DNA of 64,000 bases from an uncultured Gemmatimonadales bacterium (GCA_963697755.1 CAVOPE010000014.1:107817-171816), one strand, 5' to 3'; numbered from the stretch's first letter, positions 4,879 through 36,100 are shown. The notes: generated from the sequence alone by a model not told the origin. Numbers and translations: made by a program.

Positions 4879-4898
4879 CGGTGGTCAACGGAAGCGCC

Positions 4899-5783: not shown

Positions 5784-6328
5784 TCGCCACGCCGGCTGCC
5801 ATTCCGGAGGTCCTGCTCCTGGAGCCGGTGGTGCACGGCGACCGGCGCGGCTTCTTCCTCGAGACCTGGCACGAGCCCCGGTACGTCGCGGCCGGCATTC
5901 CCGGACCGTTCGTCCAAGACAATCACAGCCGCTCGGTGGGCCACACGCTTCGAGGGCTGCACTACCAGGTGCGGCAGCCGCAGGGAAAGCTGGTGCGTGC
6001 GGCGGCGGGCGCCATCTTCGATGTGGCGGTGGATCTGCGGCGGTCGTCGCCGACGTTCGGGCGCTGGGTGGGTGCGGTGCTCAGCGACGAGAACCACCAC
6101 CAGCTCTGGATCCCGCCTGGCTTCGCCCACGGATTCTACGTCCTGAGCGCGCAGGCCGACGTCATGTACAAGTGCACCGTCCCCTACGCTGCGCAGCTCG
6201 ACCGCGCGCTCCGGTGGGACGATGCGGCGCTGGGAATCGCCTGGCCGCTGGCCGGCGCCGGCCCACCGCTGCTTTCGGCCAAGGACGCGGCGGCGCCTGG
6301 CCTGCAGGACATCGAGGCGTATCCGTGA
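5780..6328 (+). CDS. rmlC: dTDP-4-dehydrorhamnose 3,5-epimerase
   Basis: Within ORF 5114..6328. GTG 5780 overlaps the rmlA TGA (GTGA). Motifs [45 protein letters not shown]. Confidence 0.93.
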
Positions 6329-7209: not shown

Positions 7210-7249
7210 CCTCCTCGTCACCGGCGGAGCCGGCTTCATCGGCGCGAAC
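7202..7249 (+). pseudogene. 16-codon N-terminal stub of a lost dTDP-glucose 4,6-dehydratase gene
   Basis: GTG at 7202 overlaps the rmlD stop (GTGGCTAA) and reads VANLLVTGGAGFIGAN, then unrelated LKPACCRALFEG-stop. The intact rmlB 150 nt downstream starts MRSLLVTGGAGFIGAN, with different (less GC-rich) synonymous positions. Confidence 0.7.
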
Positions 7250-7351
7250 TTGAAGCCCGCGTGCTGCAGGGCTTTATTTGAGGGCTAGGGTGCAATTCAA
7301 CTCCTCCTCGCTGCCAGCGAAGGACCGACGCGCGATCCATGCCTCACTGCC

Positions 7352-10704: not shown

Positions 10705-10757
10705 AACGCTCAGCCGTAGCACCTGACGCCCGGCCCGGCGCGCCGTCCCGGCCGTTC

Positions 10758-11804
10758 TTGGTCGGCTGGCGCCCGACCTGCAGTGACCCCAAGGTCGCTA
10801 GTGTCCGGATCCGCTGCCTCAACCCGCTGGGCGAGTTGCATCGGCAGAACTACCCCGTCGAACTGTACCAGGCCGCTCGGCGAAGCTCGTATGCGGCAGT
10901 GATCTTCTCCAAGGTTTACGACGAAGCCACCCAGGCCGAAGCGGACAAACTTCGGTCCTCTGGGGCAAGGGTCGTGCTGGATCTGTGCGACAATCACTTC
11001 CTTGATGCCTCGGGAGCGGAAGTTGTCCGCAAGGCGTCGATCCGGCTACGCCGGATGGTCGAACTGGCCGACGAGTTCGTGGCGTCCACCGATGCGATGG
11101 CAGAGGTGCTGCGGCAGGAGGCCGGCGGGCAGAGGCCGGTGACAGTAATCGGCGATGCGGTGGAGACGAGCATCGACAGCGTCCGGAGTGCCCCATGGCA
11201 CGAATGGCTCGCACGGCGACGCCTGCGGGCGCTCACCGAGCGACTGGCGGTCCAATCGGTCTCGCGGCTGGTCTGGTTCGGCTCGCATGGGGGGCCATCG
11301 GGCGACCATGGCATGGCCGATCTGGAGACGATCCGCCCACTGCTGGAATCGCTCCATCAGGAGCGCCCGCTGAGTCTCACGGTCATCAGCAACTCGGCAG
11401 AGAAGTTCGACCGGCTCATTCGGCCGTGGCGCTTGCCCACCGAGTACCTCGAGTGGAGTCCGATCACTTTTCTGTCGGCGCTCCGCTTGCACGAGATCGC
11501 GGTTATCCCGATTCGGCAGACCCCCTTCACTCGCTGTAAGACCAACAATCGCCTGGTCACGGCCCTGGCCGCCGGGCTCGCGGTGGTGGCGAGCTCGATT
11601 CCGAGCTATCTGCCGTTTGCCTCGACCTGTACGCTCGACGACTGGTCCGGAGGGCTTCGACGATACATCCTCGACCCGGAGTCCCGGCGCCGCGCGGTGG
11701 CGGCGGGGCAGGCCCTGGTGCAGCGGGAGTGGACCCTCCCGGTGATCGCGGATCACTGGCGGCACTATTTTGACGGCTTTCGCGAGAGGGCACCGCAGCG
11801 CTGA
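10758..11804 (+). CDS. putative glycosyltransferase (GT-B-like, family not assigned)
   Basis: Within ORF 10410..11804, whose first third overlaps the previous gene. Coding begins about VRIRCLNP. The C-terminal half (LVWFGSHGG..., TRCKTNNRLVTALAAGLAVVASSIPSY) looks like a GT-B nucleotide-sugar binding half. TTG 10758 is the nearest in-frame start; start uncertain. Confidence 0.5.
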   Translation: MVGWRPTCSDPKVASVRIRCLNPLGELHRQNYPVELYQAARRSSYAAVIFSKVYDEATQAEADKLRSSGARVVLDLCDNHFLDASGAEVVRKASIRLRRMVELADEFVASTDAMAEVLRQEAGGQRPVTVIGDAVETSIDSVRSAPWHEWLARRRLRALTERLAVQSVSRLVWFGSHGGPSGDHGMADLETIRPLLESLHQERPLSLTVISNSAEKFDRLIRPWRLPTEYLEWSPITFLSALRLHEIAVIPIRQTPFTRCKTNNRLVTALAAGLAVVASSIPSYLPFASTCTLDDWSGGLRRYILDPESRRRAVAAGQALVQREWTLPVIADHWRHYFDGFRERAPQR

Positions 11805-13012: not shown

Positions 13013-14098
13013 GTGGGATCACTGCCATTGAGGCTCGAGGAGCTTGTTAAGACTCGCATTGCGGAGGTCGCCGCCACCCTCCTCGGTATCCTCGCGTTGA
13101 CCGCTTGCGGCGCTGAGACAGGTCCGCCCGAGCCCCTCCCCAAACCCGACATCCTCGACAACCAGATCGTGTTCGCGTCCGATCGCGGCGGACACAAAGA
13201 GATCTACGTCACGAATCCCGACGGATCCGGCGTCATCAAGCTGTTGGACAGCCCCACCGGCGACCTCAATCCGGTGCCGTCGCCGGACGGGACCCGAGTC
13301 GCCTTCTTCCGTCATGTCGACACCGTCATCCTCCTGCAGATCATGAACACCGACGGTAGCAACCTGATCAGCACCTACTTTCGGACAGACGACGCCACCT
13401 GGTCGCCCGACGGCTCCCGGCTGGCGATGCTGGTAACCGATGCTCGCGGGATTTGGTTCACACCCAAAGTCGTCGATCGGACGGGCTCCGTGGTGTCCGC
13501 GCTCGATCTCTCTGCCTGCGGCGGCACCAGTCCGTCCTGGTCACCCGAGGGGTCCCGCTTGGCATACGTGCTTTGCCCCTCTGGCGCGGTTTACGTGCGT
13601 GACGTCGCCGCCGGCACCACAACCACGCCTGTGCCCGATTCCGAGATTGACGATGACGCCTATCTTCCCGCCTGGTCGCCTGACGGGGCGGCGATCGCCT
13701 TCGCAATCCGCGTCGACGACCCGGACCGGACTGGCATTTTCGTGGTCGGGCCGGACGGAAGTGGCCTCACCAGACTGGCGCCCGACTCCGCGGTCCGGAC
13801 GCTGCGATGGTCCCCAGACGGCTCCAAACTGGCGTTCGTCTCGGGTGCCGGCGGGGACAACGAGGTGTATGTGATAAACCCCGACGGGGCAGGACGGTTG
13901 AACCTCACGCAGAATCCCGCTGACGACAGTCACGTGACCTGGGCCCCGAGCGGCACCCGACTGGCATTCCAGAGCGACCGCACTGGCAATCGCGAGATCT
14001 TCGAGATGGATGTCGACGGCACGCACGTGGCCAACCTCACCAATAGCCCGGCGGACGATGCCGAGCTGGCCTGGAGTTCGGCCAGGGTCGCCCCATAG
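13013..14098 (+). CDS. TolB-like beta-propeller lipoprotein (PD40/WD40-like repeats)
   Basis: ORF 13013..14098. Lipobox-like LALTAC. Repeated SPDG/WSPDG blades (VPSPDGTRVAF, TWSPDGSRLAM, SWSPEGSRLAY, AWSPDGAAIAF, RWSPDGSKLAF, TWAPSGTRLAF) with IYV..PDGSG linkers. Confidence 0.8.
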   Translation: MGSLPLRLEELVKTRIAEVAATLLGILALTACGAETGPPEPLPKPDILDNQIVFASDRGGHKEIYVTNPDGSGVIKLLDSPTGDLNPVPSPDGTRVAFFRHVDTVILLQIMNTDGSNLISTYFRTDDATWSPDGSRLAMLVTDARGIWFTPKVVDRTGSVVSALDLSACGGTSPSWSPEGSRLAYVLCPSGAVYVRDVAAGTTTTPVPDSEIDDDAYLPAWSPDGAAIAFAIRVDDPDRTGIFVVGPDGSGLTRLAPDSAVRTLRWSPDGSKLAFVSGAGGDNEVYVINPDGAGRLNLTQNPADDSHVTWAPSGTRLAFQSDRTGNREIFEMDVDGTHVANLTNSPADDAELAWSSARVAP

Positions 14099-14104
14099 CG
14101 GAGC

Positions 14105-15745
14105 ATGAACGCGGACGGTCCTGGCGCTGCCGCGGGCGCTGGCGCGCAGGACCGGACCAAGGTTGTTTTCAGCGCGTCGCGGAGGCCGGCGACACCACTG
14201 ACCAGGGGGCATGTGCAACATTTTTTCGACTGGGCCAGGGGAGCCGTTCGGAGCGAGGAACCCTGGCTGATTCTCGGTAAAGGACCGAGCTTTTCGCAGC
14301 GCGATCTTTACGACCTCTCGGGCTACCGACTGTTGAGCCTGAACCACGTCGTGCGCGAGCTGCCGGTCGCGCTGGCGCACATGATCGATCTGGATGTCGC
14401 GGACGCGTGCGCCGAGGCGCTGGGCGAGAACGCCGAGTTCTTGGTGATGCCGTGGTATCCGCATGTCAGGAACCGCGCTGGCAGCGAGAGCCTGGCGGAG
14501 CTGGTCCCGAAGTTCCCCGGCCTCCGGCGTCTGGAGGCCGAGGGCCGGCTCCTATGGTATGACCTGAGCACGTCACCGGTCCGCCACGGCCCGGGCCCGG
14601 TTGTGCAGGCGACCTATTTTAGCGCCGAGGCGGCGCTGAGCCTCCTGGCTTTGGCCGGGGCCCGGCGGGTCCGCTCGCTCGGCGTGGACGGGGGTAACGC
14701 ATACAGCCAAGCGTTCGACGACCTCAAGGACAAAACGCTGCTGGCCAACGGCCGGCCGAACTTCAACCTGCAGTTCAAGGGACTGGCCAGGACCATCATG
14801 AGCACAGGTGTGGACTACGCTCCGCTCGACGTCGAGAGCCCGATTCGAGTGTACGTCGGCAGCCAGGAAGCCCAGATGCTGCCGGTGAAAGTGCTCGAAT
14901 ACTCGATCCGCAAGCACGCCAGCATGACGGTCGAGGTCTTTCCGCTGCATCAGGCCCACGTCGACTTCTCGATGCCCGCCGCGGTCGAGAACCGTCCGCG
15001 CACGCCGTTCTCATTCCAGCGGTTCTACATCCCGCAGCTCGCCGGATTTCGCGGGCGGGCGATCTACGTCGACTCGGACATGCAGGTCTTTCAGGACATC
15101 CGGAAGCTGTGGACGCTGCCGTTCGAGGGAGCCGACCTCCTGGCCGCGCGCGAAGCGGGCGAGAGCGGCCGTAAACCGCAGTTCAGCGTCATGCTGCTCG
15201 ATTGCGCGGCCCTCCGGTGGGATCTGAACGACATCGTAGCGCGGCTGGATCGCGGCGAGCTGACCTACGAGACCCTCATGTACGAGATGAAGGTCGCTCG
15301 GAGCATCCGGGCGGGCATCGACCCGACCTGGAACTCGCTTGAGCGCTATGAGGATGGCCGCACGGCCCTCCTTCATTACACCGACATGATGACACAGCCC
15401 TGGATCTCCCAGAACAATCCCCTGGGGTATCTCTGGGTGCGTGACCTGATCGGGGCGGTCGATGCGGGCGCAATCACCCGCGCCTTCGTCGAGGAGCACG
15501 TGCGCGAGGGCAACGTCCGCCCCACGCTGCTCTATCAGCTGGACCACCGGGTGGAAGAGACGGCACTCCTGCCCAAGGTCGCCCGAGAGCTCGACGACGC
15601 GTTCGTCCCTCCCTACCGGAAGATGGGGGCGCATGCCGGCACCCGACTGGGGCGCCTGGGACGCGTGCGCGCCATCCTGCGGCACGTCTACCAGCGGAGC
15701 CCACTCTTCCGCATCGAGCGAAAGCTGCGAGCGCCGGACAATTGA
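14105..15745 (+). CDS. two-domain protein: N-terminal DUF115/MptE-like domain fused to a C-terminal GT8 glycosyltransferase
   Basis: ORF 14105..15745. The C-terminal half has a GT8 look (IRVYVGSQEAQMLPVKVLEYSI, FSFQRFYIPQLAGFRGRAIYVDSDMQVFQDIRKLW with a DxD, and LHYTDMMTQPW). The N-terminal about 230 aa has LILGKGPSF ... HMIDLD ... SLGVDGGNAY, a pattern I associate with DUF115/Maf-type domains. That assignment is from memory only. Confidence 0.7.
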   Translation: MNADGPGAAAGAGAQDRTKVVFSASRRPATPLTRGHVQHFFDWARGAVRSEEPWLILGKGPSFSQRDLYDLSGYRLLSLNHVVRELPVALAHMIDLDVADACAEALGENAEFLVMPWYPHVRNRAGSESLAELVPKFPGLRRLEAEGRLLWYDLSTSPVRHGPGPVVQATYFSAEAALSLLALAGARRVRSLGVDGGNAYSQAFDDLKDKTLLANGRPNFNLQFKGLARTIMSTGVDYAPLDVESPIRVYVGSQEAQMLPVKVLEYSIRKHASMTVEVFPLHQAHVDFSMPAAVENRPRTPFSFQRFYIPQLAGFRGRAIYVDSDMQVFQDIRKLWTLPFEGADLLAAREAGESGRKPQFSVMLLDCAALRWDLNDIVARLDRGELTYETLMYEMKVARSIRAGIDPTWNSLERYEDGRTALLHYTDMMTQPWISQNNPLGYLWVRDLIGAVDAGAITRAFVEEHVREGNVRPTLLYQLDHRVEETALLPKVARELDDAFVPPYRKMGAHAGTRLGRLGRVRAILRHVYQRSPLFRIERKLRAPDN

Positions 15746-16797
15746 TCCCGCCGCCGCGCAAGCGCCGCCGATGGCCGGCGGAGTGGACCCTAACTGTCGG
15801 CCTGATGGCTTGTCTCGGGACGCATCCGTATCAGGCTCCCCGGATCAGCCGGAACCCAAGCCTTGGCGAAGGGATGGTAGTCGACGGCGGCGGCTTCCGC
15901 GCCGCGCGTGGGTCTTGGCTGGAGCTGCGAGCGCCCGCGGGCGCGAACGGCGGCCAGGTGACCATCAAGTCCAACCTCTCCGCGGGCTGCTCGCTCTGGT
16001 CGTGGGTGTGGAACGACTTCGAGTTCGTCAACGTGCACGACTACGGCCGCCAGATCCAGACGGCCTTCGTGAGCGACCGCGGCGCGGCCCACGAAGCCAA
16101 CCCGACCGAGGCCGGCAGCCGCTTCTCGGCTTGGCCCGGCTCGCACAAGGGCTCGCCATGCGTGCGGGCCGCCAACGTGCTGCCCGCGACGCAGGTGACC
16201 TCTGCTTCGCCCTTCGAATACGAGCCGACGCGGTGGGGTGGCGGCTACCGGCGGCCGTTCCTCTGGAAGGACGTTCGCATAGGCAAGGAGATCACCCTCG
16301 ACTACCTCGGGCTCGGCCCGGTGGCCCGCTACGCCAGCCTCGTGACCGTGCCGGCGGACGTGCCGAGCTCGGGTGTGGAGATTCCCTCCGTCTACCTGCA
16401 TGCCAGCCTCCGCCGGTTCTACGGCTACGACGCCGCCACGCGGACGTTGTCGCTCCAGGATCCGGCGACCGTCGAAGGCGGGACGCTGCCGCCGTCGGGC
16501 TACGGCGGAGTCATCGCATCCACTCCGGACGGGTCGCGGGCGTTCGGCCAGTACGGCGTCGTGGACTCGCTCGGCGGCTCGGTGACTCCCGCTGCTGGCG
16601 GATTCAGCTACTTCCTGTTCCCGGACCCGACCGACACCCTCGGACCCGCGGCCAACGCGACGGCCAAGATCCGCGCGCTCCACGGCGGGCTCGTGCGCGG
16701 GGAAAATCGGATGACCACCTACCTGATGAGCGGGACCCTCGCCGAGGTCACGGCGCTGATGGACAGCCTGTACGCGCACCGGGAAGTGGCGCGCTGA
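15742..16797 (+). CDS. hypothetical protein (possible lipoprotein), no family recognised
   Basis: ORF 15742..16797. TTG 15742 overlaps the preceding TGA (TTGA). N-terminus RKRRRWPAEWTLTVGLMACLG is signal/lipobox-like. Alternative ATG at 15874. High GC3 throughout supports coding. Confidence 0.55.
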   Translation: MIPPPRKRRRWPAEWTLTVGLMACLGTHPYQAPRISRNPSLGEGMVVDGGGFRAARGSWLELRAPAGANGGQVTIKSNLSAGCSLWSWVWNDFEFVNVHDYGRQIQTAFVSDRGAAHEANPTEAGSRFSAWPGSHKGSPCVRAANVLPATQVTSASPFEYEPTRWGGGYRRPFLWKDVRIGKEITLDYLGLGPVARYASLVTVPADVPSSGVEIPSVYLHASLRRFYGYDAATRTLSLQDPATVEGGTLPPSGYGGVIASTPDGSRAFGQYGVVDSLGGSVTPAAGGFSYFLFPDPTDTLGPAANATAKIRALHGGLVRGENRMTTYLMSGTLAEVTALMDSLYAHREVAR

Positions 16798-18106: not shown

Positions 18107-19166
18107 CGGGGTAGTGATCGTGCTCAGCGCCTACGACGGCGCCCGCCACATCGAAGCGCAGATCCGCAGCATCCAGCGCCAGCATCACCAGGACTGGCTG
18201 CTGTTGGTGCGGGACGACGGCTCAAGCGACGGCACCCCCGCGCTGGTCGAAGCGCTGGCACGTGAGGACCTGCGGATCCGCCTGGTGTCCTCCGGCGGGA
18301 AGAACCTCGGCGCCGTCGCCAGCTTCGGCGCGCTGCTCGCCGAGGCGGCGGCGGGAAACGCCCGCTACGTCTTTCTCGCCGATCAGGACGATCTCTGGCT
18401 GGAGGACAAGCTCGGCCGACAGCTCGAGGCCATGACCAGCGCCGAAGTCCGCCTCGGGTCCGACGTGCCCATCCTCGTGCACTCGGATCTCTCGGTGGTC
18501 GACGACCGCCTGCGGCCGATTCACCCGTCGTTCCTCCGCTACCAGAGCGGTCTCGCCACGCCGACGGGCCTTTCGCTCCGCACGCTGCTCGCTCAGAACC
18601 TCGTGACCGGCTGCGCGACGGCGGTCAACCGCGCGCTCCTGCGCCTGGCGCTGCCGCTTCCCGACGTGGTCATGCACGACTGGTGGCTCGCGCAGTGCGC
18701 CGCGGGCGCTGGGGCGGTGGTCTCCCTGCCGGACGCGCTCGTGCTCTACCGCCAGCACGCGGCCAACGTCGTCGGCGCGAGCGGGTTCTACGGGCTGGTG
18801 GCGCGGGCGCTGCGAAGCCCGGTGGCATGGTGGGAGCGTGGCGGACGGAATTTCGTGCGCGGCGTGCGCCAAGCGGCCATGCTCCGGGAGCGACTGGAAG
18901 GAGAGCGACTGGTACCGGGACGGTCGGAGCGTGAGCACTCCGGCGAGAGTGCCGATCTCGTGGCCCGGTACGCGACGGCCTTCGCCGGAACAGCGTCACC
19001 TCTCCAACGTCTCCGGAAAGTGCGCGCCCTGGGCGTCCACCCGGCGAGCCGGGTCCCGCGACTGCTGTACTACCTCCGCGTGCTGTTGTACGAGCGGCTC
19101 CGTGGCAATGTGGGGCCCGCCCGCCCGGCGGCTCAGCGTAGCAGCTCGTCCACGATCGGCGCGTAG
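18096..19166 (+). CDS. GT2-family glycosyltransferase
   Basis: ORF 18096..19166. VIVLSAYDGARHIEAQIRSIQRQ, LLVRDDGSSDGT, FLADQDDLW (DxD region). The 11-nt overlap with the Wzy-like gene suggests coupling. Confidence 0.85.
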   Translation: MTSDGVVIVLSAYDGARHIEAQIRSIQRQHHQDWLLLVRDDGSSDGTPALVEALAREDLRIRLVSSGGKNLGAVASFGALLAEAAAGNARYVFLADQDDLWLEDKLGRQLEAMTSAEVRLGSDVPILVHSDLSVVDDRLRPIHPSFLRYQSGLATPTGLSLRTLLAQNLVTGCATAVNRALLRLALPLPDVVMHDWWLAQCAAGAGAVVSLPDALVLYRQHAANVVGASGFYGLVARALRSPVAWWERGGRNFVRGVRQAAMLRERLEGERLVPGRSEREHSGESADLVARYATAFAGTASPLQRLRKVRALGVHPASRVPRLLYYLRVLLYERLRGNVGPARPAAQRSSSSTIGA

Positions 19167-20386
19167 GTGCGGGTCCGGTCGAGGTGGGCGGCGGCGAATG
19201 CCATCACGTAGACACGCTGCCGCGCCGCCCGCTCGGGATCCTTGAGGGCATGGTGCATCGCAACCGCCAGTTCGTCGCCGTTGCCGGCGGCGTAGTTGTA
19301 TCCCAGATCGTTCCCCTCGACCATCTCCCAGGCCTCGCCCGGCAGGCTGTTGATGACCGGGATCCCCGCCAGCAGGTAGTCGTTCAGCTTGTAGGAGTAC
19401 GCCACGTTGCCGCCGACCGCGAAGGTGTTGAGCCCGTAGTCCATGTGGCGGAGCAGCGCGACCAGGTCGCGGTGCGGCAGCAGGCCGGAGAACCAGCTTC
19501 GAAGTCCGATCTCCGCCGCGAGGGCGCGGAGCACCGGCTCAAGCTCACCCGCACCAAGACAGACGAGACAGGCCCCGGGGTGGTCCGTCTGCACCGCGCG
19601 CGCGGTGCGGACCACCAGCTCGAGGTCGTAGTTGCGTCCCAGGGTCCCCACGTACACGAAGCGGAAATCGGCTGCCGCAATCTCGGGCGGCAGCGCGACC
19701 GACGACACCGCCTCCGCGTAGTACGCCAGGTCGCCGCCGAGGTAGACGCAACGCGCCGGCGGAAGCCCGCGCGGCCCGCGCACGCGGTCGGCGCCCTCGG
19801 CGTAGCGCGCCGATTCGGCCACGACGGTGTCGGCCAGGCCGAGGGCCGCGTCGGCGGTCCAGCGCCAGAGCCGGAACAGCGGGCGCTCGTACGGCCTGAG
19901 CCGGTGCACGGCCAGCAGCGACTCGGGCCAGGTGTCGTGCACATCGATCACCAGCCGGCTGCCTATCGCCCGGGCGAGGAGGCCCAGCAGCAGCGCGCTA
20001 AGATTGTGCGGGATTGGGCAGTAGATGCTGCGCGGGCGGCCCCTGCGCACGAGCTCCCACACTGCCGCCAGCGCGAGGCCCAGGTCGAACACGAGGTGGC
20101 TCAGCACCCGCCGCACGCTGACGTTCGCCGAGTAGCCCGGCTCGAACACGCGTACGAAGCGCAGACCGGGCCGCTCGAGCGCTGGCTTGGGGCGCTTGGC
20201 CTGATGGTCGAACCCGCTCGTGAAGAAAGTGACACGCGCCCCCCGCGCGCGCACCCGCTCCGCGAGGTAGAGAAACCGGTCGCCCTCGGCCATGCGGGCC
20301 GGGTTGGTGAACGGCCCCACGACCCAGACCAGTGGCGGCTCCGCCGCTTGAATCCGGCCGGGTGCCGGGTTAGCTATCTCGCTCAT
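19133..20386 (-). CDS. GT4-family glycosyltransferase (WbuB/WcaI-like)
   Basis: ORF 19133..20386(-). GT-B N-terminal half (VWVVGPFTNP...RFLYLAERVRARGARVTFFT) and C-terminal half (FVYVGTLGRNYDLELVV, GIPVINSLPGEAWEMVE). Convergent with the GT2 gene, overlapping it by 34 bp. Confidence 0.85.
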   Translation of the reverse strand: MSEIANPAPGRIQAAEPPLVWVVGPFTNPARMAEGDRFLYLAERVRARGARVTFFTSGFDHQAKRPKPALERPGLRFVRVFEPGYSANVSVRRVLSHLVFDLGLALAAVWELVRRGRPRSIYCPIPHNLSALLLGLLARAIGSRLVIDVHDTWPESLLAVHRLRPYERPLFRLWRWTADAALGLADTVVAESARYAEGADRVRGPRGLPPARCVYLGGDLAYYAEAVSSVALPPEIAAADFRFVYVGTLGRNYDLELVVRTARAVQTDHPGACLVCLGAGELEPVLRALAAEIGLRSWFSGLLPHRDLVALLRHMDYGLNTFAVGGNVAYSYKLNDYLLAGIPVINSLPGEAWEMVEGNDLGYNYAAGNGDELAVAMHHALKDPERAARQRVYVMAFAAAHLDRTRTYAPIVDELLR

Positions 20387-20402: not shown

Positions 20403-21608
20403 ATGCGGATCTACCTCTCCGTGCCGCACATGGGCACGCTCGAGCAGACGTACGTCGCCGAGGCCTTCGCCACCAACTGGCTCTCGTCCGCGGGTCCGCA
20501 TCTGCAAGCCTTCGAGAACGAGGTGGCCGAGCTGCTCGGCGGCGGCGTGAGCACCCTGGCCACCTCGAGCGGCACCGCGGCGCTGCACCTCGTACTCCGA
20601 GCGGCTGGAGTGGGGGCCGGGGACCGGGTGGCGGTCTCGACGCTCACGTTCGCCGGCTCGGTGTTCCCTATCGACTACCTCGGCGCGCGGCCGGTCTTTC
20701 TCGACAGCGAGCCCGAGTCCGGCAACCTCGATCCGGCGCTGTTGCGCGACTATTTGCGGGCGGCGGCGGCGCGCGGCGAGCTGCCCAAGGCCCTCATCGT
20801 CGTGCATCTCTACGGGCAGCACGCCGACCTGGACGCGATCGCCGCCGCGTGCGCCGAGTACAACGTACTGATGATCGAGGACTCGGCCGAATCGCTGGGC
20901 GCCACCTACAAAGGGCGGCAGACCGCCGTCACCGCACCGCTCTCCATCCTGAGCTTCAACGGCAACAAGATTATCACCACGACTGGCGGCGGCATGGTGG
21001 TTGCCAAGGACCCGGCGGTGCTGGCTCGAATGCGGAACTGGGCCAACCAGGCGCGCGAGCCCGCCGTGGAGTACCTCCACCGGCAGGTCGGGTTCAACTA
21101 CCGGATGAGCAACGTGCTCGCCGCAATCGGGCGGGGGCAGCTCACCGTCCTCGAGGACCGGGTACTGGCCAGACGTGCCGTCGCCGAGCGCTACGGCCGC
21201 CTCCTGGGCGACATTCCCGGCGTCGAACTGCAGCGGGAAGGTCCATGGGGACGCCACACGCGGTGGCTGTCGGTGATCTACCTCCATCCGGCCACGCATC
21301 CCGGCGGACCCCGGCGTGTGATCGAAGCGCTCGGCACGCGCGGCATCGAGGCCCGCCCGGTCTGGCGGCCGATGCACACGCAGCCGCTCTACGCCGAGGC
21401 CGAGCGGGTCGGAGGGGAAGTGGCAGAGCGGTTGTACGGCACCGGCCTCTGCCTCCCGTCGTCGTCCAGTCTCACGATCCACGAGCAGGACGAGGTCATC
21501 GAAGCGATCAGACAGACGCTGGTCCGCGCGGACGCAGCAGCACCTCGGCCAGCTCCTCGATCGACTGGGTCGTCCAGTCCGGCTGGTGTTCGGCGGTCGC
21601 CGGGGTGA
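20403..21608 (+). CDS. DegT/DnrJ/EryC1/StrS-family PLP-dependent sugar aminotransferase (PglE-like)
   Basis: Within ORF 20385..21608; ATG 20403 preferred (MRIYLSVPHMG). Motifs SSGTAALHLVL, LIVVHLYGQHADLDAI, SILSFNGNKIITTTGGGMVV (PLP-lysine region), GFNYRMSNVLAAIG. The last 33 codons overlap the convergent HAD gene. Confidence 0.9.
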   Translation: MRIYLSVPHMGTLEQTYVAEAFATNWLSSAGPHLQAFENEVAELLGGGVSTLATSSGTAALHLVLRAAGVGAGDRVAVSTLTFAGSVFPIDYLGARPVFLDSEPESGNLDPALLRDYLRAAAARGELPKALIVVHLYGQHADLDAIAAACAEYNVLMIEDSAESLGATYKGRQTAVTAPLSILSFNGNKIITTTGGGMVVAKDPAVLARMRNWANQAREPAVEYLHRQVGFNYRMSNVLAAIGRGQLTVLEDRVLARRAVAERYGRLLGDIPGVELQREGPWGRHTRWLSVIYLHPATHPGGPRRVIEALGTRGIEARPVWRPMHTQPLYAEAERVGGEVAERLYGTGLCLPSSSSLTIHEQDEVIEAIRQTLVRADAAAPRPAPRSTGSSSPAGVRRSPG

Positions 21609-22203
21609 GCCCGTGGTACTCTCCCGCCGCATGGCGGGCCCACACAGCCTGCATGCCCGCTGCCTTGGCCCCGCGGAAGTCCTTCGCCGGATTGTCTCCC
21701 ACATAGACGCAGTCGGACGGTAGCACCCCGAGCGCCCGACTCACCGCCAGAAACGGCTCGGGGCTCGGCTTCCACGCGCTTCGACCCAGCGTGTCGGAGA
21801 ACACCACCGCGTCGAACCAGGGCGCCAGTCCGCTGGCCAGCCACTTCCGTTCCTGCATCGTCGCCGGCCCGTCCGACACCAGCCCCAACCGATAGATCCG
21901 CTTGAGCTCGCCTAGGAGCCGCTCGACGCCGGGAAGCGGCGTGAGGACAGGGGAGTGCGTCCGGTAGGCCTCGACCAGCGCGTCCACGGTGACGTCGAGG
22001 CCCGGACGGCTGGCCAGCCAGCGATCGAAGGTGCTGCCGCGCATGCCACTCCGGTACAGACCGACCAGCTCGTCGTACGCCGCCGCCGCGGCGACACCCC
22101 CGGCGAGGGCGGCCCGATCGGCCGCGGCCCGAAATCCGCCGAGCACGAAGTCGCGCTCGGCGACCAGCGTGTCGTCAAGGTCAAAGACGACGGCGCGCCA
22201 CAT
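21508..22203 (-). CDS. HAD-superfamily hydrolase
   Basis: ORF 21508..22203(-). Motif I VVFDLDDTLV, motif II LGLVSDG, motif III/IV KPSPEPF ... VYVGDNPAKD. Confidence 0.85.
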   Translation of the reverse strand: MWRAVVFDLDDTLVAERDFVLGGFRAAADRAALAGGVAAAAAYDELVGLYRSGMRGSTFDRWLASRPGLDVTVDALVEAYRTHSPVLTPLPGVERLLGELKRIYRLGLVSDGPATMQERKWLASGLAPWFDAVVFSDTLGRSAWKPSPEPFLAVSRALGVLPSDCVYVGDNPAKDFRGAKAAGMQAVWARHAAGEYHGLTPATAEHQPDWTTQSIEELAEVLLRPRGPASV

Positions 22204-23182
22204 TGGCCAGGTCGCTCTCGCTGAGAAAGAACGCGTCGTCGAACCGGGTCACGTACAGGCCCTCGCGGAAGCCGTCCGGGCGGCCGGGGTCGTAGGGGAC
22301 GCCAGCGACCTCGGCGAGCAGGAGCGCCGGGCCGTGGACGCCCGCGGCGATCCCCAGGGGCGCGCCCCCGCCGAAGCGGGCGTTGATCTCGGTGAAGTGT
22401 GGCTCGCCGTCGCGCAGCATGCACTGCACCGTGAGGGGCCCGCGGCCGGGCAGGGCTTCGGCGATCCGCCGGCAGCCGTCCAGGATGCGGTCGTCGCGCA
22501 CCGTCACGCCCTTCACCACCTCTCCGCCGCGGACTTCGAGACGCCGCCGCGAGACCAGCCCTCGGACGCGGCCGTCGAGCCCGCACACGACGTCGGTCGT
22601 GATCTCGGGGCCGGGCAGGTGCTCCTCGATCATGGGGAACGGCACGTAGCCGAGGAAGAAGCGCAGCTCGTCGGGGCTTCGGGCCAGGAAGGCGTGCTGG
22701 GCGGCGCTCCCATCGCGGGGCTTTAAAAACACCGGGTACGTGAGTGCCTCCGGATCCACCCCGTCGGCCACCCAACCCTGCGCCACGGCCAGGCCGAGCT
22801 TCCGGAAGAAGGCCTTGGTTCGCCACTTGTCACGGGTGATGTCGGCCGCCTCGGCGGAGATCACCCCGGCCTCGGCGCCGGCCTCGTGAAACGCCTCGCG
22901 GTGGCGCGCGAGCACGGGAATGTCCGGGTCGGTGAGGGGCAGCACGAGGGCGACGCCCTCCTCGCGGCAGATTCCGAGGAGCTCGGGGACAAACGCCGGG
23001 TCGCGGGTGGGGGGCACCAGATACCTGCCATCGGCTACCTGCAGGGTGGGCGCAAGCGGGTTGATGTCGGTCGCCAGCACCCGGACCTCGATGCCGAGGC
23101 GAGGCCCGGCGTCGTGGAAGGCGCGGACGAGCTCCACCCGGCGCCCTGCGCTGGTCAGGAGAACGGTGACCCGAGCGGTCAT
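22181..23182 (-). CDS. ATP-grasp domain ligase
   Basis: Within ORF 22181..23218(-); ATG 23182 (MTARVTVLLTSAGRRVELV) sits behind a GGGGAG RBS-like stretch. ATP-grasp features DKWRTKAFFRKLG, YPVFLKPRDGSAA, MIEEHLPGPEITTDV, FTEINARFGGG. Confidence 0.85.
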   Translation of the reverse strand: MTARVTVLLTSAGRRVELVRAFHDAGPRLGIEVRVLATDINPLAPTLQVADGRYLVPPTRDPAFVPELLGICREEGVALVLPLTDPDIPVLARHREAFHEAGAEAGVISAEAADITRDKWRTKAFFRKLGLAVAQGWVADGVDPEALTYPVFLKPRDGSAAQHAFLARSPDELRFFLGYVPFPMIEEHLPGPEITTDVVCGLDGRVRGLVSRRRLEVRGGEVVKGVTVRDDRILDGCRRIAEALPGRGPLTVQCMLRDGEPHFTEINARFGGGAPLGIAAGVHGPALLLAEVAGVPYDPGRPDGFREGLYVTRFDDAFFLSESDLANVARRRL

Positions 23183-23186
23183 GCTG

Positions 23187-23771
23187 TCAGCTCCCCTGGA
23201 ATTCCGTGGTGCCTCCATCGACCGGGCTCACGCCCCGTCCTTCCAGCACTCGCGCGACTGTTCGCACCAGGATCGAGAGGTCGAGGCCGAGCGAGTGGTG
23301 ATCGACGTACCAGACGTCGAGTGCCAGCCGCTCGGGCCAGGTCTGCGCGTTCCGGCCCTGTATCTGGGCCCAGCCCGTCAGGCCGGGCGGTACTTCGTGG
23401 CGCCGGGCCTGCAGCGGCGTGTAGCGGGATAGATAGCGGACGGGCAGGGGCCGGGGACCCACCAGGCTCATGTCGCCCCGGCAGATGTTCCAGAGCTGCG
23501 GCAGCTCATCGAGGCTCCAGCGCCGGAGCCAGCGGCCCAGCGGGGTGAGCCGGATGGCGTCGGTCGCGACTTCGAGCTCAGGGCTCGGGGCGGGGCGCAT
23601 CGTCCGGAACTTGTACAGCCGGAATGGACGGCCTCCCAGGCCGGCGCGCTCCTGCACGAAGATGACCGGCGGGCCGAGTCGCGCGCGCACTGCGAGGGCG
23701 ATCGCGAGCAGGAGCGGCGCGGTGAGGAGCAGTCCCATGCCGGCGAGCGCGAGGTCCAGGGCGCGTTTCAT
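23187..23771 (-). CDS. undecaprenyl-phosphate sugar phosphotransferase, small single-TM type (PglC/WbaP C-terminal domain family)
   Basis: Within ORF 23187..23825(-); ATG 23771 (MKRALDLALAGMGLLLTAPLLLAIALAV). Motifs GPPVIFVQERAGLGGRPFRLYKFRTM, DELPQLWNICRGDMSLVGPRP, PGLTGWAQIQG. Confidence 0.9.
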   Translation of the reverse strand: MKRALDLALAGMGLLLTAPLLLAIALAVRARLGPPVIFVQERAGLGGRPFRLYKFRTMRPAPSPELEVATDAIRLTPLGRWLRRWSLDELPQLWNICRGDMSLVGPRPLPVRYLSRYTPLQARRHEVPPGLTGWAQIQGRNAQTWPERLALDVWYVDHHSLGLDLSILVRTVARVLEGRGVSPVDGGTTEFQGS

Positions 23772-23949
23772 CGAATCCCGGGTGGCGGTTGCGGTATGGT
23801 AGACTAGCCTCGGGACGGTCCGCAAGTCTCAGTCGGGCAAGGCCCAGAGGCCCGGCGGAGGTGTACATCAGGGCGGGGGCCCTTATCTTCCAATCGCCCC
23901 GCGCCCCTCCGCGCGCGTCCATGCTAACTAGGAGCTCGACGTCCGCGAA

Positions 23950-25017
23950 ATGGCTTCCGACCAGCCCGACGACCTGTCCTTCGCTGCCGCGCTGACGTTC
24001 CTGCTTGCGCACCGACGGCTGGTGCTCGGCACCGGTCTGCTCGTCTTCGTCCTGGTTACCGCCGTTTCGCTGCTCCGGTCACGCACGTTCACGTCGACCG
24101 CCTCCTTCATGCCGCAGACCTCCGAGAGCGTGCTCTCACGTTTCTCGGGCCTCGCCGCCACGTTCGGCGTGCCGGTGCCGGCGAGTGATCCCGGCTCGTC
24201 GCCCGCCTTCTATGTGACGCTGCTCAAGTCCCGGGACGTGCTCCGCCGCACGGTCCAGACACCGTACCTGATCCGCGTGGGCGGCGACACCATCCGGCGC
24301 ACGCTGGTGGACTTTTACAAGGCAGAGGGGGCCACGCCGGCGGCCCGCCGGGACGCCGCGGCCGAGCGGCTGCTCGAGGACCTGATGGTCTCCACCGGCC
24401 GGGAGACGGGGATCGTCAAGCTCGAGGTGACCACAGTCGACCCGGCGTTGAGCCAGCAGGTGAGCCAGCGGATGATCGGGCTGGTGAGCGAGTTCAACAT
24501 GCTACGCCGGCAGAGCAACGCCGGCAGCGAGCGCCGGTTCGTGGAGGGTCGGAGCGCCGAGGCCAAGCGAGCGCTCGAGGCCGCGGAAGGCCGTCTGCAA
24601 GGGTTCCTCCAACGCAACCGCGAATACCGGAACGCGCCGCAGCTGGTGTTCGAGTATGAGCGGCTGCAGCGCGACGTGCAGATGCAGCAGCAGATCTACT
24701 CCTCCCTGGCCCAGGCGCTCGAGCAGTCCCGCATCGACGAGGTGCGCAACACCCCCGTGATCACCCTGATCGAGCCGCCCGACCTCCCGGCCAAGCCCGA
24801 CGGCCGCTTCGCCCTGGTCAAAGGCATCCTCGGGTTGCTGGTGGGACTGGGACTGGGAGCGCTGTTCGCGGCCTGGAGACAGCTGCTCGCCGGCATGGGG
24901 CGACTCCGCGCGCCCAGCGTGCCTCCCGCGCAAGGGCGAACGGGTCCGGGATTGGCGCGCAATCTGCAGGATATGGCAGGCTCGGAGTCTGGTTTTGGAG
25001 CTCGCAAGTCGGGCTAA
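23950..25017 (+). CDS. polysaccharide chain-length determinant (Wzz/PCP-type, no kinase domain)
   Basis: ORF 23950..25017. N-terminal TM (LVLGTGLLVFVLVTAVSLL), a long coiled periplasmic region (FNMLRRQSNAGSERRF..., QQQIYSSLAQALEQSRIDE) and a C-terminal TM (ILGLLVGLGLGALFAAW). Confidence 0.75.
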   Translation: MASDQPDDLSFAAALTFLLAHRRLVLGTGLLVFVLVTAVSLLRSRTFTSTASFMPQTSESVLSRFSGLAATFGVPVPASDPGSSPAFYVTLLKSRDVLRRTVQTPYLIRVGGDTIRRTLVDFYKAEGATPAARRDAAAERLLEDLMVSTGRETGIVKLEVTTVDPALSQQVSQRMIGLVSEFNMLRRQSNAGSERRFVEGRSAEAKRALEAAEGRLQGFLQRNREYRNAPQLVFEYERLQRDVQMQQQIYSSLAQALEQSRIDEVRNTPVITLIEPPDLPAKPDGRFALVKGILGLLVGLGLGALFAAWRQLLAGMGRLRAPSVPPAQGRTGPGLARNLQDMAGSESGFGARKSG

Positions 25018-25072
25018 GTTGCACTTCCCGAATGCCTTGACTCTCACCAGCCAGGTGTAGATACTCTTCGCA

Positions 25073-26985
25073 ATGTCTCCACACCAGCCCCTCCCACCCC
25101 GTCCACAGATCCGGAACCGATACCTCTTTGCGTCGGACGTGTGTCTTTTCGTCTCAGCCACGATCCTCGCGTACGCCCTTCGGTTCGAAGGATTCGAGTG
25201 GGGCCCGGAACAACAGCAGGCGGCGGTCGTCTATCTCCTCGTCTCCCTCCCCATCAAGCTGTACGTCGCGTGGTGGGTCGGCATCTATCGCCGGCTGTGG
25301 CGCTACGCCGGGATCATCGAGGTTGAGCGGCTGATCTCGTCGGCGGCCATTTCCGGGCTGGCATGCCTGGTCCTGGGCGGCCTGGTCCTCCCGATTCTGG
25401 GTGTCACCGCCGTGCGAGTGCCGCTGTCGGTCCTGTTCATGGACGGGCTGCTGACCGCGGTCTTCGCGGCGCTGCCCCGGCTGGGTGTCGCGCCTTCGGG
25501 CGGCGGACAGCAGCGCCGCCGGGTCGACAGCGACCGGGTGATCATCGTGGGTGCCGGGGCCGCCGGTGAACTGATCGGGAAAGAACTGCTGGGCCATCCA
25601 CAGCTCGGGCTCCAGCCGATCGGCTTCGTGGATGACGACCCCTCGAAGCACGGACACCGCATGCTGGACCTGCCGGTGCTCGGTGCCCTCAAGGACCTGA
25701 CCGGTCGTCATCGACGAACTGGCGCGCACGAGGTGATCATCGCGATGCCGCGCGCGCCGGGAAAGGCGGTGCGCGCAGGTCGTGGATGCGGCGCACTGCG
25801 GCCGGCGCGCGCGCGCGCACGGTGCCAGGCATGTTCGACATTCTTTCGGGCCGCGTCTCGGTTACGGCGCTGCGCGAGGTCCAGATCGAGGACCTGCTGC
25901 GGCGCGAGCCGATCATCACCGACCTGGCCCAGGTGCGAGAGCTGGCGACCGGCGAGACCGTGCTGGTGACCGGCGCAGGCGGCTCGATCGGCAGCGAGTT
26001 CTGCCGGCAGCTCGCCCGGCTGGAGCCGGCCCGCATCATCATGCTGGGCCACGGCGAGAACTCGATCTTCGACATCCTAGCACGAGCTGGTCCGGCTCGT
26101 TCCCAATGTCACCGCGTGCCCGTCATCGCCGACGTGCGTGACCGCGAGCGGCTGCAGCACGTGTTCGAGTCATTACCGCCCGTACGCGGTCTTCCACGCC
26201 GCCGCCCACAAGCACGTGCCCGCTCATGGAAGACGAACATCGCCGAGGCCGTGACGAACAACGTCCTGGGCACCCGCAACGTCGCCGAGCTGTCGGCCGA
26301 GTATCGGCGTCAAGCACTTCGTGCTGATCTCGACCGACAAGGCCGTGCGGCCCACCAACGTGATGGGCGCCACCAAGCGGGTGGCCGAGCAGATCGTGCA
26401 GCGAGATCGCGGAGGCGCAGAGCGGAAGAACTTCGTCGCGGTGCGGTTCGGCAACGTGCTCGGCAGCCGGGGCAGCGTGGTGCCGACGTTCCTGCGCCAG
26501 ATCCGCGAGCGGCGGCCCGGTCACGGTCACCCACCCCGAGATGCGGCGCTACTTCATGACGATCCCGGAGGCGGTCCAGCTGGTGCTGCAGGCCGGCGCG
26601 CTCGGGCGAGGGCGGCGAGGTGTTCGTCCTCGACATGGGCGAGCCGCTCAAGATCGTCGACCTGGCGACCGACCTGATCCGGCTGTCGGGCCTCGAGGTC
26701 GGCGACATCGAGATCCGGTTCAGCGGGACGCGGCCGGGCGAAAAGCTGTACGAGGAGCTGTTCTTCGACTCGGAGAATGCCGTGCCCACCGACCATCCGA
26801 AGGTGCTGCGGGCGCGGAACGGCACCTTGCCCATCGGACTGAGCACCGGGGTCGATGCGCTGGTGGAGGGCGCGCGCAGCGGGAGGCCGGACGACGAGAT
26901 CCGCAGTCTGCTCGTGCGACTCGTCCCCGACTTCCGGCTGTCCGAGCACACCGCCGCGGAAGTGCTGGACCTCGCCCAGAGCTGA
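25073..26985 (+). pseudogene. membrane-bound nucleotide-sugar 4,6-dehydratase, CapD/PglF/WbpM family; about 10 frame changes as sequenced
   Basis: N-terminal TM domain in ORF 25073..25969. The catalytic domain is then spread over all three frames. Segments in order: QVVDAAHCG, RTVPGMFDILSGRVSVTALREVQIEDLLRREPI...VLVTGAGGSIGSEFCRQL...GHGENSIFDI, HELVRLVPNVTA, VPVIADVRDRERLQHVFE and YRPYAVFHAAAHKHVP. The remainder are [52 protein letters not shown]...[48 protein letters not shown] and [19 protein letters not shown]... to the stop at 26985. Confidence 0.85.
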
Positions 26986-27006
26986 CGCGGCCTCGCCCGC
27001 TAGGCG

Positions 27007-33107: not shown

Positions 33108-36100
33108 CTACCGGGCGGGCGCCAGCGCCTCGAGCCGCTGCCGCACGACGCCCACCGCGGCCTCGGCACCCAACCCCTCGAGCAGCCGCACTGCCTCGGC
33201 TACGAGAGCCGGCGTGTCGGCCTCCGCGAGTGCCAGCGCCTGCTCGTGCGGGCAGCCGAGCCGTGCCCATTCCTCCGCCGCGCCGACGGCGTCGCCCCGG
33301 AGCTCCAGGAGGCAGGCGCCCGGGATGTCTTCCGGCACCCGGGGAAGCGCGCCGGCGCGATGCAGCCACACCGCCAGGCAACCGCGGATCCAGGGGCTGT
33401 TCCTGGTCAGCGACAACTCGTAGACGGCCCGGGCCTCCATTGCCATCTCCGCCGGCCGGCGGGCCAGCCACGCTGCCTCGGCCCGGGCCAGCGCCACCGG
33501 TCCGAGCCGCTGCAGCTCCGCCGTGCTCTCCGCCAGCGTGTGCGCCTCGTCGAGCAGCTCGCTGACGCCGGCTTGGCCGCAGCGGGCGCGAAACAGCCCC
33601 AGCACGACCAGCGCGTGGATCCTCGCCGGAGCGAAGAGCTTGGTCTGCTCCAGCAGCTCGGCCGCCTCGAGGCGGGCCTCTTCCCAGGCCCCGGTGTCGA
33701 GGTGGAGCTGCGCTCGCCACGCGCGCATATACGCGGTCCAGAAATCGAGGTCCCGTGCCTCAGTGTACTCCAGCCCTTCGCGCAGGTAATGCTCGGCCTC
33801 CTGATACCTCCGGTCCGCCACGAAGCTGGTGAAGTTGGCATAACACCGGGACACGTGCTCCTGGTAGCTGCCCTCGCGCGCAAGGCGAAGCGCACGGGTG
33901 AGCTTGGGGTAGCCTTCGTCCGGCCGCGACCGGATCTCGGCGCTCCCGACGTTGGTGAGCGCATGCACCAGGGTCTCGCTGTCGCCGAGGCGCTCGGCGA
34001 GCGCGATGGCCTTGTCGCCCCAGGTCACCGCTCCCTCTGTCTCGCCGGCGAGCATGTGGAGCTGGGACAGGTTGCTGTACGCCATCGCCAGCTCCGGGCC
34101 GAGACCGAGCGGCTCGAGGACCGCGATTGCCTCCCCCGCGTAGCCCTCCGCGTCCGCCCGTCGGCCCCCAGACCAGGCCAGGCGCGAGAGCCATCGCAGC
34201 GCGGCGCCCTCCCGCCGGCGATCGCCGAGACGCCGCCAGGTTTCCAGCGCCTCCTCCCGCGCGGCGAACGCCTCGGCCATGCGGCCGATCAGGTAGTCCT
34301 CATAGGACCGGCCTTCCAGCAGCGTCGCCCGCTCGTCCGGCGCCAACCCTTCGGCGGAGCGCAGTCCCACGCTGTAGTGCGCCGAGGCCTCGCGATGGGC
34401 GCCGAGCGCGGAGGCTTGCGAGGCGGCCAGGGGAACCCAGCGTTGGACCGACTCGGTGTCGCCGGCGCCTTCCGCATGATGCACCAGTCTGGCCGGCGCG
34501 ACAGGTGACGCGGCCGTCTCGAGCGCTGCGAACACGCGCGCGTGCAACCCGCGCCGCCGGCTAGAGACGAGGCTCTCCTCGACCGCGCGCCGCGCGAGCT
34601 CGTGGCGAAAGCCGACGCCCTGCTGGTCGCTGGTCAGCATGCCCGCGGAGAAGCATTCCTCCACCGCCGCCGAGTCGCGACCGAAGAGCCGCTCCACCAG
34701 CCAGGACTCGGCCTTTCCCGGAATCACCGAGACGACCTCCATGGCCGCGCGCGCCTCGGGCGAAGCGCGCGACGCCCGGCCCAGCACCGCGTCCCGCACC
34801 GTCGCGGGGATGCCCGACTGGTAGCTGGCGAGGACCTCGGAGAGGTAGAAGGGGTTCCCGCCGGTCGCCGCGTGGAGCCCGCGATGGCCGCGTCCAGCAC
34901 GGCGGGCGAGCGTCGCGACGGCCGACTCGGAGAGCGGACGCAGCTCGAGGCGGCGCACCGCGCCGCGCGGGAGATCGCCGAGCACCGATCGCAGCGGATG
35001 GGCGGGGCCGATCTCGTCATCCCTCACGGTCACGATCACCAGCAGTGGGAGCCGGTGCGCCCGCCGCCCCAGGAACTTGAGGAGGTCGAGCGTCGCTCCG
35101 TCGGCCCAGTGCACGTCCTCCAGCACGAGCACGGTCGGCGTGCGGCCGAGCCCGAGCTCATCGAGGAGCGTACCAAAGATCGCTTCGCGGCTGGACGCGT
35201 TCCGGAGCGCCGCGTCGAGCGCGCCGCCGAGCTGGGCGGCGATGTCGTACAGCGGGCCGAGCGGGCGCGGGGTGAACAACGCCTCGCACCAGCCCCAGAG
35301 CAGGCGGACGGAGCGCTGCCCGCGGGTGAACTCCTCCACCAGCGAGGTCTTGCCGATGCCCGCCTCCCCGGAGACCAGGACGAGCGCGCCGCTGCCGGCG
35401 ACCGCCGCCACCAGGAGACGCTCGAGCTCGTCCAGGAACTCCTCCCGCTCGACCAGCGCCGTCTCCCGGGTTGCGGGCTGCGGCAGGGCACTCTGCGCGG
35501 CGGTCACGCCGGTCGCGGCGATCGGTTCCGCGAGCGCCTGGGCGAGCTCGGCCGCGCCTGCGAAGCGGTCGACGGGGTCACGGGCCAATGCCCGTCTGAC
35601 CGCGGTCTCCAGCCAAGGCGGGACGTCCGCGCGCAGTGGCCGCAGCTCCGGCGGCGCTTCCACCAGGCGGCGGGACATCAGGGCCATCGCAGTCCGACCG
35701 GTGAAGGGTGTCTGCCCGGCGAGCATCTCGAAGAGCACGCACCCGAGCGCGTACACGTCCGAACGCCCGTCCACCGGCTCGCCGGCGACCTGCTCGGGGC
35801 TCATGTATGCCGGGCTGCCAACCGCGGTGCCGGCGACGGTCAGCGCCGCGTCGAGCGGTCCGACCACCCGGGCGACTCCGAAGTCCGCGACCAGGGCATG
35901 GCCGCCGGACAGGAGTATGTTCTCCGGCTTGATGTCGCGGTGCACCACGCGGTGCGCATGGGCGTACGCCAAGGCGTCGGCGATCTCCCGGGCGAGACCG
36001 ATGGCCTCCGCCAACGGAAGCGCCCCCTCGCGCTCGAGCCGTCGGCGGAGCGACTCGCCGGCGACATACGGCATCGTGTACCAGGACTGGCCGGCGGTCC

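Follow-up and report, generated by a model that had tools for sequence, protein, structure and literature searches.

A probable ATP-grasp route to an N-acylated priming amino sugar, encoded with a HAD hydrolase, in an uncultured Gemmatimonadales bacterium

How the 4-amino group of a priming sugar could be acylated by a bacterium that has PglF-, PglE- and PglC-like enzymes, but no recognisable counterpart of the acetyltransferase PglD, is the question raised by a polysaccharide locus of an uncultured Gemmatimonadales bacterium (GCA_963697755.1, CAVOPE010000014.1:107817-171816; this stretch of 64,000 nucleotides, analysed at its full length, is hereafter the window, and coordinates are counted from its first letter). 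The locus is of the Wzx/Wzy type and extends from 3.8 to 32 kb of the 64-kb window. A first-pass annotation had singled out five genes at 20403-26985, among them an ATP-grasp gene and a HAD hydrolase gene where an acetyltransferase would be expected, and had proposed that a carboxylate is ligated to the 4-amino group in an ATP-dependent reaction, that the HAD enzyme acts on the donor or on an intermediate, and that an unusual N-acyl sugar would thereby prime the glycan. The comparative evidence set out below favours this proposal, and we regard N-acylation of the priming amino sugar by the ATP-grasp enzyme as probable, as far as its general mechanism is concerned. Pfam and NCBIfam matches place all five genes where they had been annotated:

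20403..21608, plus strand: DegT sugar 4-aminotransferase, PglE/LegC-like (Pfam DegT_DnrJ_EryC1, 1.6e-87)
21508..22203, minus strand: HAD hydrolase, predicted HAD-IA phosphatase (Pfam Hydrolase and HAD_2, 9e-24)
22181..23182, minus strand: ATP-grasp ligase, 333 aa (Pfam PylC-like_N, 1.7e-23; ATP-grasp_3; ATPgrasp_Ter)
23187..23771, minus strand: small Bac_transf phosphoglycosyl transferase (PGT), PglC-like, monotopic (Pfam Bac_transf, 2.2e-61)
25073..26985, plus strand: PglF/WbpM/CapD-type membrane-bound UDP-GlcNAc 4,6-dehydratase, spread over three frames

Because the G+C content is about 70% across the window, reading frames were picked by third-position GC, which backs every frame used. The PGT gene comes first in its operon, followed by the ATP-grasp gene and then the HAD gene. 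Reading of the sequence gives 4 nt between the PGT stop codon and the ATP-grasp ATG, with a GGGGAG motif before the ATG, and an overlap of 23 nt between the ATP-grasp and HAD genes, exactly as had been claimed; the three genes therefore form a tightly coupled minus-strand operon, and the HAD gene is predicted to be translationally coupled to the ATP-grasp gene through the overlap. The HAD gene and the DegT gene, for which 20385 is an alternative start, are convergent and overlap by 101 nt.

The solved structure closest to the DegT protein is that of Campylobacter jejuni PglE (1o61; 7e-75), and its score against the LegC family is under the cut-off (TIGR04181, 330.3 bits vs 420). The PGT is closest to PglC of C. 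concisus (8e37; 3e-46), with which it aligns over its full length and without gaps, and it retains the Asp-Glu dyad (in SLDELPQL) and the PRP motif (in VGPRPL). The fingerprint of PGTs specific for UDP-di-N-acetylbacillosamine (UDP-diNAcBac) consists of a five-residue aromatic box, a long C-terminus and a GLLLP loop (PMC10186338). The window PGT has the long C-terminus and three of the five residues of the box (Y118, Y122 and W150), but not the full fingerprint: F154 is replaced by Leu, F197 is shifted by one residue, and LEVAT stands in place of GLLLP. The 333-aa ATP-grasp product is identical to a protein already in the database (P0001) and matches NCBIfam PRK12767.1-4 at 2.5e-88 (296 bits, under the cut-off); its only close solved relative is PDB 2pn1 (1e-33 with the single sequence, 4e-57 with a family profile). 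An assignment to the housekeeping ligases, such as carbamoyl-phosphate synthase or D-Ala-D-Ala ligase, was rejected, as family-profile matches to these were only 1e-9 or weaker. In the HAD protein, FDLDDT, LVSDG, WKPSPEPF and VGDNPAKD make up the complete set of four motifs, including DxDxT with its second Asp, and going by these motifs the enzyme would be a phosphatase. NCBIfam matches assign it to subfamily IA, and to no named subfamily of known substrate (best match TIGR02253, 124.8 bits vs a cut-off of 169.75); all equivalog models score it under their cut-offs, the best match of this type being phosphoglycolate phosphatase.

The strongest evidence that these proteins act together comes from other genomes. 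Relatives of the ATP-grasp protein were found, in the genome collection, in at least 552 species of about 15 phyla, including archaea and candidate-phyla bacteria, and the family comprises 550 clusters (50% identity) at E <= 1e-30; neighbourhoods were counted in the best 80 loci, all of which are from metagenome-assembled genomes (MAGs). In 70 of the 76 loci whose sequence extends far enough, the start of the HAD gene is no more than a few bases away from the ATP-grasp stop codon. A small PGT gene lies at most 6 kb from the ATP-grasp gene in 57 of 73 loci (directly upstream in 32), and a DegT gene at most 8 kb away in 55 of 64 (immediately after the HAD gene in 36). The order PGT, ATP-grasp, HAD, DegT, in some cases with PglF, is found as a colinear cassette in, among others, L002, L004, L086, L087 and L088; phyla with this arrangement include Chloroflexota and Acidobacteriota. 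Moreover, the same domains are joined in single proteins: PGT-ATP-grasp fusions, which have the architecture of Neisseria PglB2 (see below), in dozens of clusters; ATP-grasp-HAD fusions in at least five clusters; PGT-ATP-grasp-HAD fusions some 750 aa long, as in Anaerostipes (P0493, 750 aa); and, in addition, ATP-grasp-DegT, ATP-grasp-HAD-DegT (L065) and WecA-type transferase-ATP-grasp proteins. These fusions indicate that the ATP-grasp enzyme, the phosphatase, the aminotransferase and the transferase serve one pathway, and they suggest that the product of the predicted ligase is the substrate of the transferase. The first-pass annotation had named three observations that would count against its proposal, namely a LbH acetyltransferase encoded nearby, the lack of a conserved linkage of the ATP-grasp/HAD pair with sugar-aminotransferase genes in other genomes, and a grouping of the ATP-grasp protein with housekeeping ligases. 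None of the three was made; the linkage, to DegT as well as to PglC-like genes, is strongly conserved across phyla and has become fusion in several lineages, and the ATP-grasp protein stands apart from the housekeeping enzymes, its only close solved relative being 2pn1, two checked relatives of which are encoded in polysaccharide loci.

Some members of the family show further arrangements. The gene most commonly inserted beside the ATP-grasp gene encodes an S-adenosylmethionine-dependent methyltransferase (Methyltransf_11 or TylF type), a neighbour that is weakly consistent with a hydroxy acid as the acyl group. A methyltransferase gene stands between the PGT and ATP-grasp genes in L028, L029, L031, L032, L035, L061, L068 and L082, and L004 has one beside the ATP-grasp gene, at 7076-7972; in L013 the inserted gene encodes a PIG-L deacetylase. 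In a Clostridiales MAG (L095:8653-10107) the HAD protein is fused to a LicD phosphotransferase domain and encoded right after a PGT-ATP-grasp fusion, with three further LicD genes and two cytidylyltransferase-family genes downstream. P0123 is a tandem double ATP-grasp protein of 659 aa, P0158 a WecA/MraY-type transferase fused to an ATP-grasp domain, and P0508, an 876-aa protein from a source labelled as eukaryote, combines PGT, ATP-grasp, HAD and GT2 families.

The absence of a hexapeptide acetyltransferase, first reported for the locus, holds for the entire window. A hexapeptide-periodicity scan of the 64 kb in six frames returned one chance match only, in a transmembrane helix, and tblastn of the window with six PglD/LbH sequences from related loci gave no match at E <= 1e-3. 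The coding space between 3.8 and 32 kb is fully occupied by other genes. Two unannotated open reading frames, 15742-16797 and 10410-11804, were considered as a hidden acetyltransferase and rejected, as neither has a family match even at E <= 1.

To our knowledge, acylation of an amino sugar by an ATP-grasp enzyme is established in two cases only, Pyl and PglB2. With these two as precedents, the acylation of UDP-4-amino sugars by ATP-grasp enzymes is not new in kind (PMC11626204, PMC8987622, PMC11130364). Pyl of Bacillus cereus (Bc5272) ligates 2-oxoglutarate to the 4-amino group of UDP-4-amino-FucNAc (cited in PMC11626204, PMC8987622) and works with Pat (Bc5273) in the synthesis of UDP-Yelosamine. 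It is a biochemically shown ATP-grasp ligase that acts on a UDP-4-amino-6-deoxy-HexNAc and is encoded, as is the window enzyme, beside a DegT and a small PGT (PMC11626204; Hwang et al., 2014, cited in PMC8987622); the difference is that its acid, 2-oxoglutarate, is the by-product of the aminotransferase, and that the sources consulted mention no phosphatase.

PglB2 of Neisseria is a PGT plus ATP-grasp protein and yields 4-glyceramido-2-acetamido-2,4,6-trideoxyhexose (GATDH) (PMC11130364, PMC6959607); its acyl-transfer step is only proposed in the available literature. A PglC-type domain is followed by an ATP-grasp domain that replaces the PglD-type acetyltransferase, and the partners are likewise a 4,6-dehydratase and an aminotransferase acting on UDP-GlcNAc. 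In contrast to PglB2, the window has separate PGT and ATP-grasp genes and a coupled HAD phosphatase gene, and the sugar would enter a polysaccharide made via Wzy, Wzz and Wza, whereas in Neisseria it enters a protein glycan. A naturally split pglB2 is still functional (PMC4569582), an arrangement that the separate, coupled genes of the window match. ORF8, an open reading frame beside Neisseria pglB2, is not described in the reviews searched. The window ATP-grasp protein and its relatives, being encoded with, or fused to, a DegT and a PGT, keep the company that would be expected of a Pyl/PglB2-type ligase.

The dehydratase, the aminotransferase and the transferase have their closest solved or curated relatives in the PglF/PglE/PglD/PglC pathway of Campylobacter, which makes di-N-acetylbacillosamine and in which, as proposed here, a 2,4-diamino-2,4,6-trideoxyhexose is built as the first lipid-linked sugar. 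The window differs from it in having no PglD and in a PGT that lacks GLLLP and has an altered aromatic-box residue (PMC10186338); the departures of the PGT and the missing PglD agree with a different substituent on the 4-amino group. The structure 2pn1, from Exiguobacterium and deposited as 'carbamoylphosphate synthase large subunit', has the same three-domain make-up as the window ATP-grasp protein but represents a separate subfamily, as judged from a score of 120 bits and a residue-by-residue alignment. Two sequenced relatives of 2pn1 were checked, both from Bacillales; they are encoded in polysaccharide loci, with no adjacent HAD gene. In one of the loci inspected, from Bacillus sp. (L090:3923-6102), the 2pn1-type ATP-grasp gene directly follows a gene of the ornithine/DAP/arginine decarboxylase family, not a HAD gene, which suggests that the neighbouring gene of each subfamily supplies a different co-substrate.

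How, then, might the five enzymes work together? Their joint product would be the sugar that primes a surface polysaccharide of the Wzx/Wzy type. Going by family membership, the PglF-like dehydratase would convert UDP-GlcNAc to a 4-keto-6-deoxy sugar, and the PglE-like DegT enzyme would aminate it at C4. The ATP-grasp enzyme would then activate a carboxylic acid by turning it into an acyl phosphate, and link it to the 4-amino group, as synteny, the fusions and the precedents of Pyl and PglB2 suggest, and the PglC-like PGT, as the PGT-ATP-grasp fusions suggest, would move the N-acylated 2-acetamido-2,4,6-trideoxyhexose-1-phosphate to undecaprenyl phosphate. Because the HAD protein has the motifs of a phosphatase, and because its gene nearly constantly overlaps or is fused to that of the ATP-grasp protein, the acid most likely derives from a phosphorylated metabolite, from which the HAD enzyme would remove the phosphate before or after ligation. 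In the version that we prefer, 3-phosphoglycerate (or 2-phosphoglycerate) may be ligated and then dephosphorylated, or it may be dephosphorylated to glycerate, which is then ligated; either order would lead to a 4-glyceramido sugar resembling Neisseria GATDH. We infer both the nature of the acyl group and the point at which the HAD enzyme acts, and the literature searched contains nothing on the acyl donor or on a role of the HAD protein. A glyceroyl group specifically is a tentative suggestion, made by analogy with GATDH, and on balance a doubtful one.

Several observations weigh against the pathway as drawn. HAD-IA enzymes usually act on small substrates, and the class favours an order in which the HAD enzyme acts first over an action on a UDP-sugar. 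The relative in L096 has PGT-ATP-grasp, DegT and PglF, and no HAD. Pyl and PglB2 were absent from the best-ranked matches listed in each of our four protein searches: a profile built from three PGT-ATP-grasp fusion proteins retrieved many fusions, and no Neisseria protein among the matches listed, and a search seeded with the 2pn1 sequence gave no B. cereus protein among the listed matches that carry an organism name. The dehydratase gene is frame-broken in this assembly (see below). Finally, about 10% of the related loci have a PglD-like acetyltransferase, encoded next to the ATP-grasp protein or fused with it, and about 90% have none; the module, then, does not everywhere act as a straightforward stand-in for PglD, and the co-occurrence fits better with an aminoacyl group that is later acetylated, or with a different role of the ATP-grasp enzyme. 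PglD-like enzymes of this kind were found, for example, in L041, L042, P0183, P0199, P0207 and the Anaerostipes locus L091. Within 10 kb of the genes of L041 and L042 there is no HAD, PGT or PglF homologue, and a distant DegT match in L042 only; the role of the ATP-grasp enzyme may differ there from its role in the window.

As to the arrangement of these PglD-like enzymes, they are fused to the ATP-grasp domain in both orders, in two Bacteroidetes MAGs (L041:8021-9883 and L042:9140-10999) and in P0183, P0199 and P0207. In the Anaerostipes sp. MAG (L091:5992-11866), the genes for PglF, DegT, a 750-aa PGT-ATP-grasp-HAD protein and a PglD-like protein follow one another, with both acylating enzymes in one operon.

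The alternative that survives best keeps the chemistry at C4 and replaces glycerate with an amino acid or another acid: O-phosphoserine, ligated and afterwards dephosphorylated, would give a seryl amide, phosphoglycolate a glycolyl and phospholactate a lactoyl group, or 2-oxoglutarate might be used as by Pyl. An acetyltransferase next to the ligase or fused with it, as in the lineages just described, would be in keeping with subsequent N-acetylation of an aminoacyl group; the N-terminal domain of the window enzyme is PylC-like, and PylC ligates an amino acid; and phosphoglycolate phosphatase, although under its cut-off, is the best equivalog-type match of the HAD protein. However, the acetyltransferase is missing from the window and from most related loci, no feature of the locus indicates a particular amino acid, and for the sole PGT-ATP-grasp enzyme whose sugar is known, that of Neisseria, this sugar carries glycerate (PMC11130364). 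We consider this alternative rather unlikely.

A second alternative is that this organism no longer has a working pathway. Its dehydratase gene would be a true, very recent pseudogene, and no amino sugar would come from the trio of dehydratase, aminotransferase and transferase. That the gene is frame-broken as sequenced had been seen in the first-pass annotation, and comparison with homologues places seven or more changes of frame in the stretch from 25.78 to 26.6 kb. The CoA_binding_3 domain lies in 25073-25969 and Polysacc_synt_2 in 25786-26559 and 26620-26985. The catalytic signature of PglF-type enzymes is TDK...Mx3K, as defined in PMC8987622, and the window dehydratase retains it as STDKAV...VMGATK. 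Three further assemblies of the same population contain the locus. The near-identical assembly L093 has an intact dehydratase of 650 aa, and its ATP-grasp and Wza genes are broken; in L092 the dehydratase (PglF) is broken and the PGT and ATP-grasp genes are artificially fused, so that the sister assemblies break different genes, which argues against decay of this one. The window and L093 are essentially identical over 12 to 25.5 kb and 27 to 32 kb, but the 1.5 kb from 25.5 to 27 kb, inside the dehydratase gene, show 203 substitutions and 27 gap columns between the two (6-23% divergence per 500-bp bin), and this divergence, like the frame changes, is what a decaying gene could present. The substitutions are nevertheless biased towards the third codon position (57/41/115), as for a functional allele, and the window dehydratase would therefore be a genuinely distinct allele, shaped by selection. 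The stretch also has some 17 small indels, for the most part insertions of one base. Moreover, the conserved GTPase gene obg (50381-51461) has a frameshift of its own, near 51150 of the window, and its G4 motif (TKRD) resumes in another frame. This gene is, as far as is known, essential in the bacteria where tested, and its frameshift suggests single-base indel errors in the assembly; since obg is affected as well, such errors are the simpler explanation, and since the near-identical L093 carries an intact gene of 650 aa, we read the frame breaks in the dehydratase in the same way, most likely as consensus or assembly errors in a strain-variable stretch. A dead pathway is accordingly unlikely in our view. 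The mosaic stretch itself, 25500-27000, resembles an allele produced by recombination where the locus varies among strains.

In the glucuronamide pathway of the C. jejuni capsule, Cj1437, Cj1438 and Cj1435 are an aminotransferase, an ATP-grasp enzyme and a HAD enzyme. A system of this type, in which an amino-alcohol phosphate would be made by an aminotransferase acting on a triose phosphate, coupled by the ATP-grasp enzyme to the carboxylate of a uronic acid and then stripped of its phosphate by the HAD enzyme, would account for three identical enzyme classes, fused as one protein in L065, but we judged it very unlikely, since a UDP-sugar 6-dehydrogenase (Ugd-like) was not found in the window and lies near only 2 of 80 related loci, since the DegT protein has the sugar aminotransferase PglE as its closest solved relative, and also in view of the PglF-type UDP-GlcNAc dehydratase that follows DegT in colinear cassettes and of the fusion of ATP-grasp proteins to phosphoglycosyl transferases, which are users of nucleotide sugars.

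For an N-acylated priming sugar made by the ATP-grasp route, the rest of the locus provides the context of a Wzx/Wzy-type pathway. Besides the cassette it encodes a GFO/IDH/MocA oxidoreductase, a MurJ-like flippase, two methyltransferases, a Wzy-like polymerase, an 871-aa Wza/SLBB exporter and glycosyltransferases of families GT8, GT2 and GT4 (two of the last), and includes the following genes:

4881-8461: rmlA, rmlC, rmlD and rmlB
19133..20386, minus strand: GT4 glycosyltransferase (Glyco_transf_4 and Glycos_transf_1)
23950..25017, plus strand: Wzz/GNVR chain-length-determinant-like protein (GNVR, 2.4e-06; weak EpsF match)

The Wzz/GNVR-like gene is divergent from the PGT operon. The GT4 enzyme at 19133..20386 may carry out the second step, with the lipid-linked priming sugar as its substrate; a GT4 gene also adjoins the cassette in L004, L086, L087, L091 and L096. 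Practically no intergenic DNA separates the GT4 gene, whose minus-strand start is 20386, from the divergent DegT gene, whose plus-strand start is 20385 or 20403, and because of this their promoters would have to sit within each other's coding sequence. A PD40/WD40-like beta-propeller protein is encoded at 13013-14098, amid the block of glycosyltransferase genes, and is kept in the sister assemblies. The locus is flanked by genes for a 1086-aa Ser/Thr kinase with AAA_16 and TPR domains (33108-36368) and for a protein of the isocitrate-lyase/PEP-mutase family (2615-3586).

The priming sugar sets the specificity of the first membrane step in the assembly of a bacterial glycan and, often, its antigenic identity. 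What the present analysis adds to the chemistry known from Pyl and PglB2 is that it apparently occurs in a compact, often fused cassette in hundreds of species, almost always together with a phosphatase; neither the near-obligatory pairing with a phosphatase nor the single-protein fusions are described in the literature searched. The pairing gives a testable hypothesis for the donor, a phosphorylated acid. The cassette may also serve as a genomic marker by which unusual reducing-end sugars can be predicted, and the PGT-ATP-grasp-HAD fusions are candidates for biochemistry on a single protein. More speculatively, and with the balance at present tilted against it, the HAD-coupled ATP-grasp proteins may constitute a large, unstudied family that uses a phosphorylated central metabolite, such as 3-phosphoglycerate, as the acyl donor for UDP-4-amino sugars, with the phosphatase completing the reaction. 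If true, this would account for the formation of the glyceramido group in Neisseria GATDH, and N-glyceroyl (and O-methyl-glyceroyl) priming sugars would be predicted to be common in environmental bacteria.

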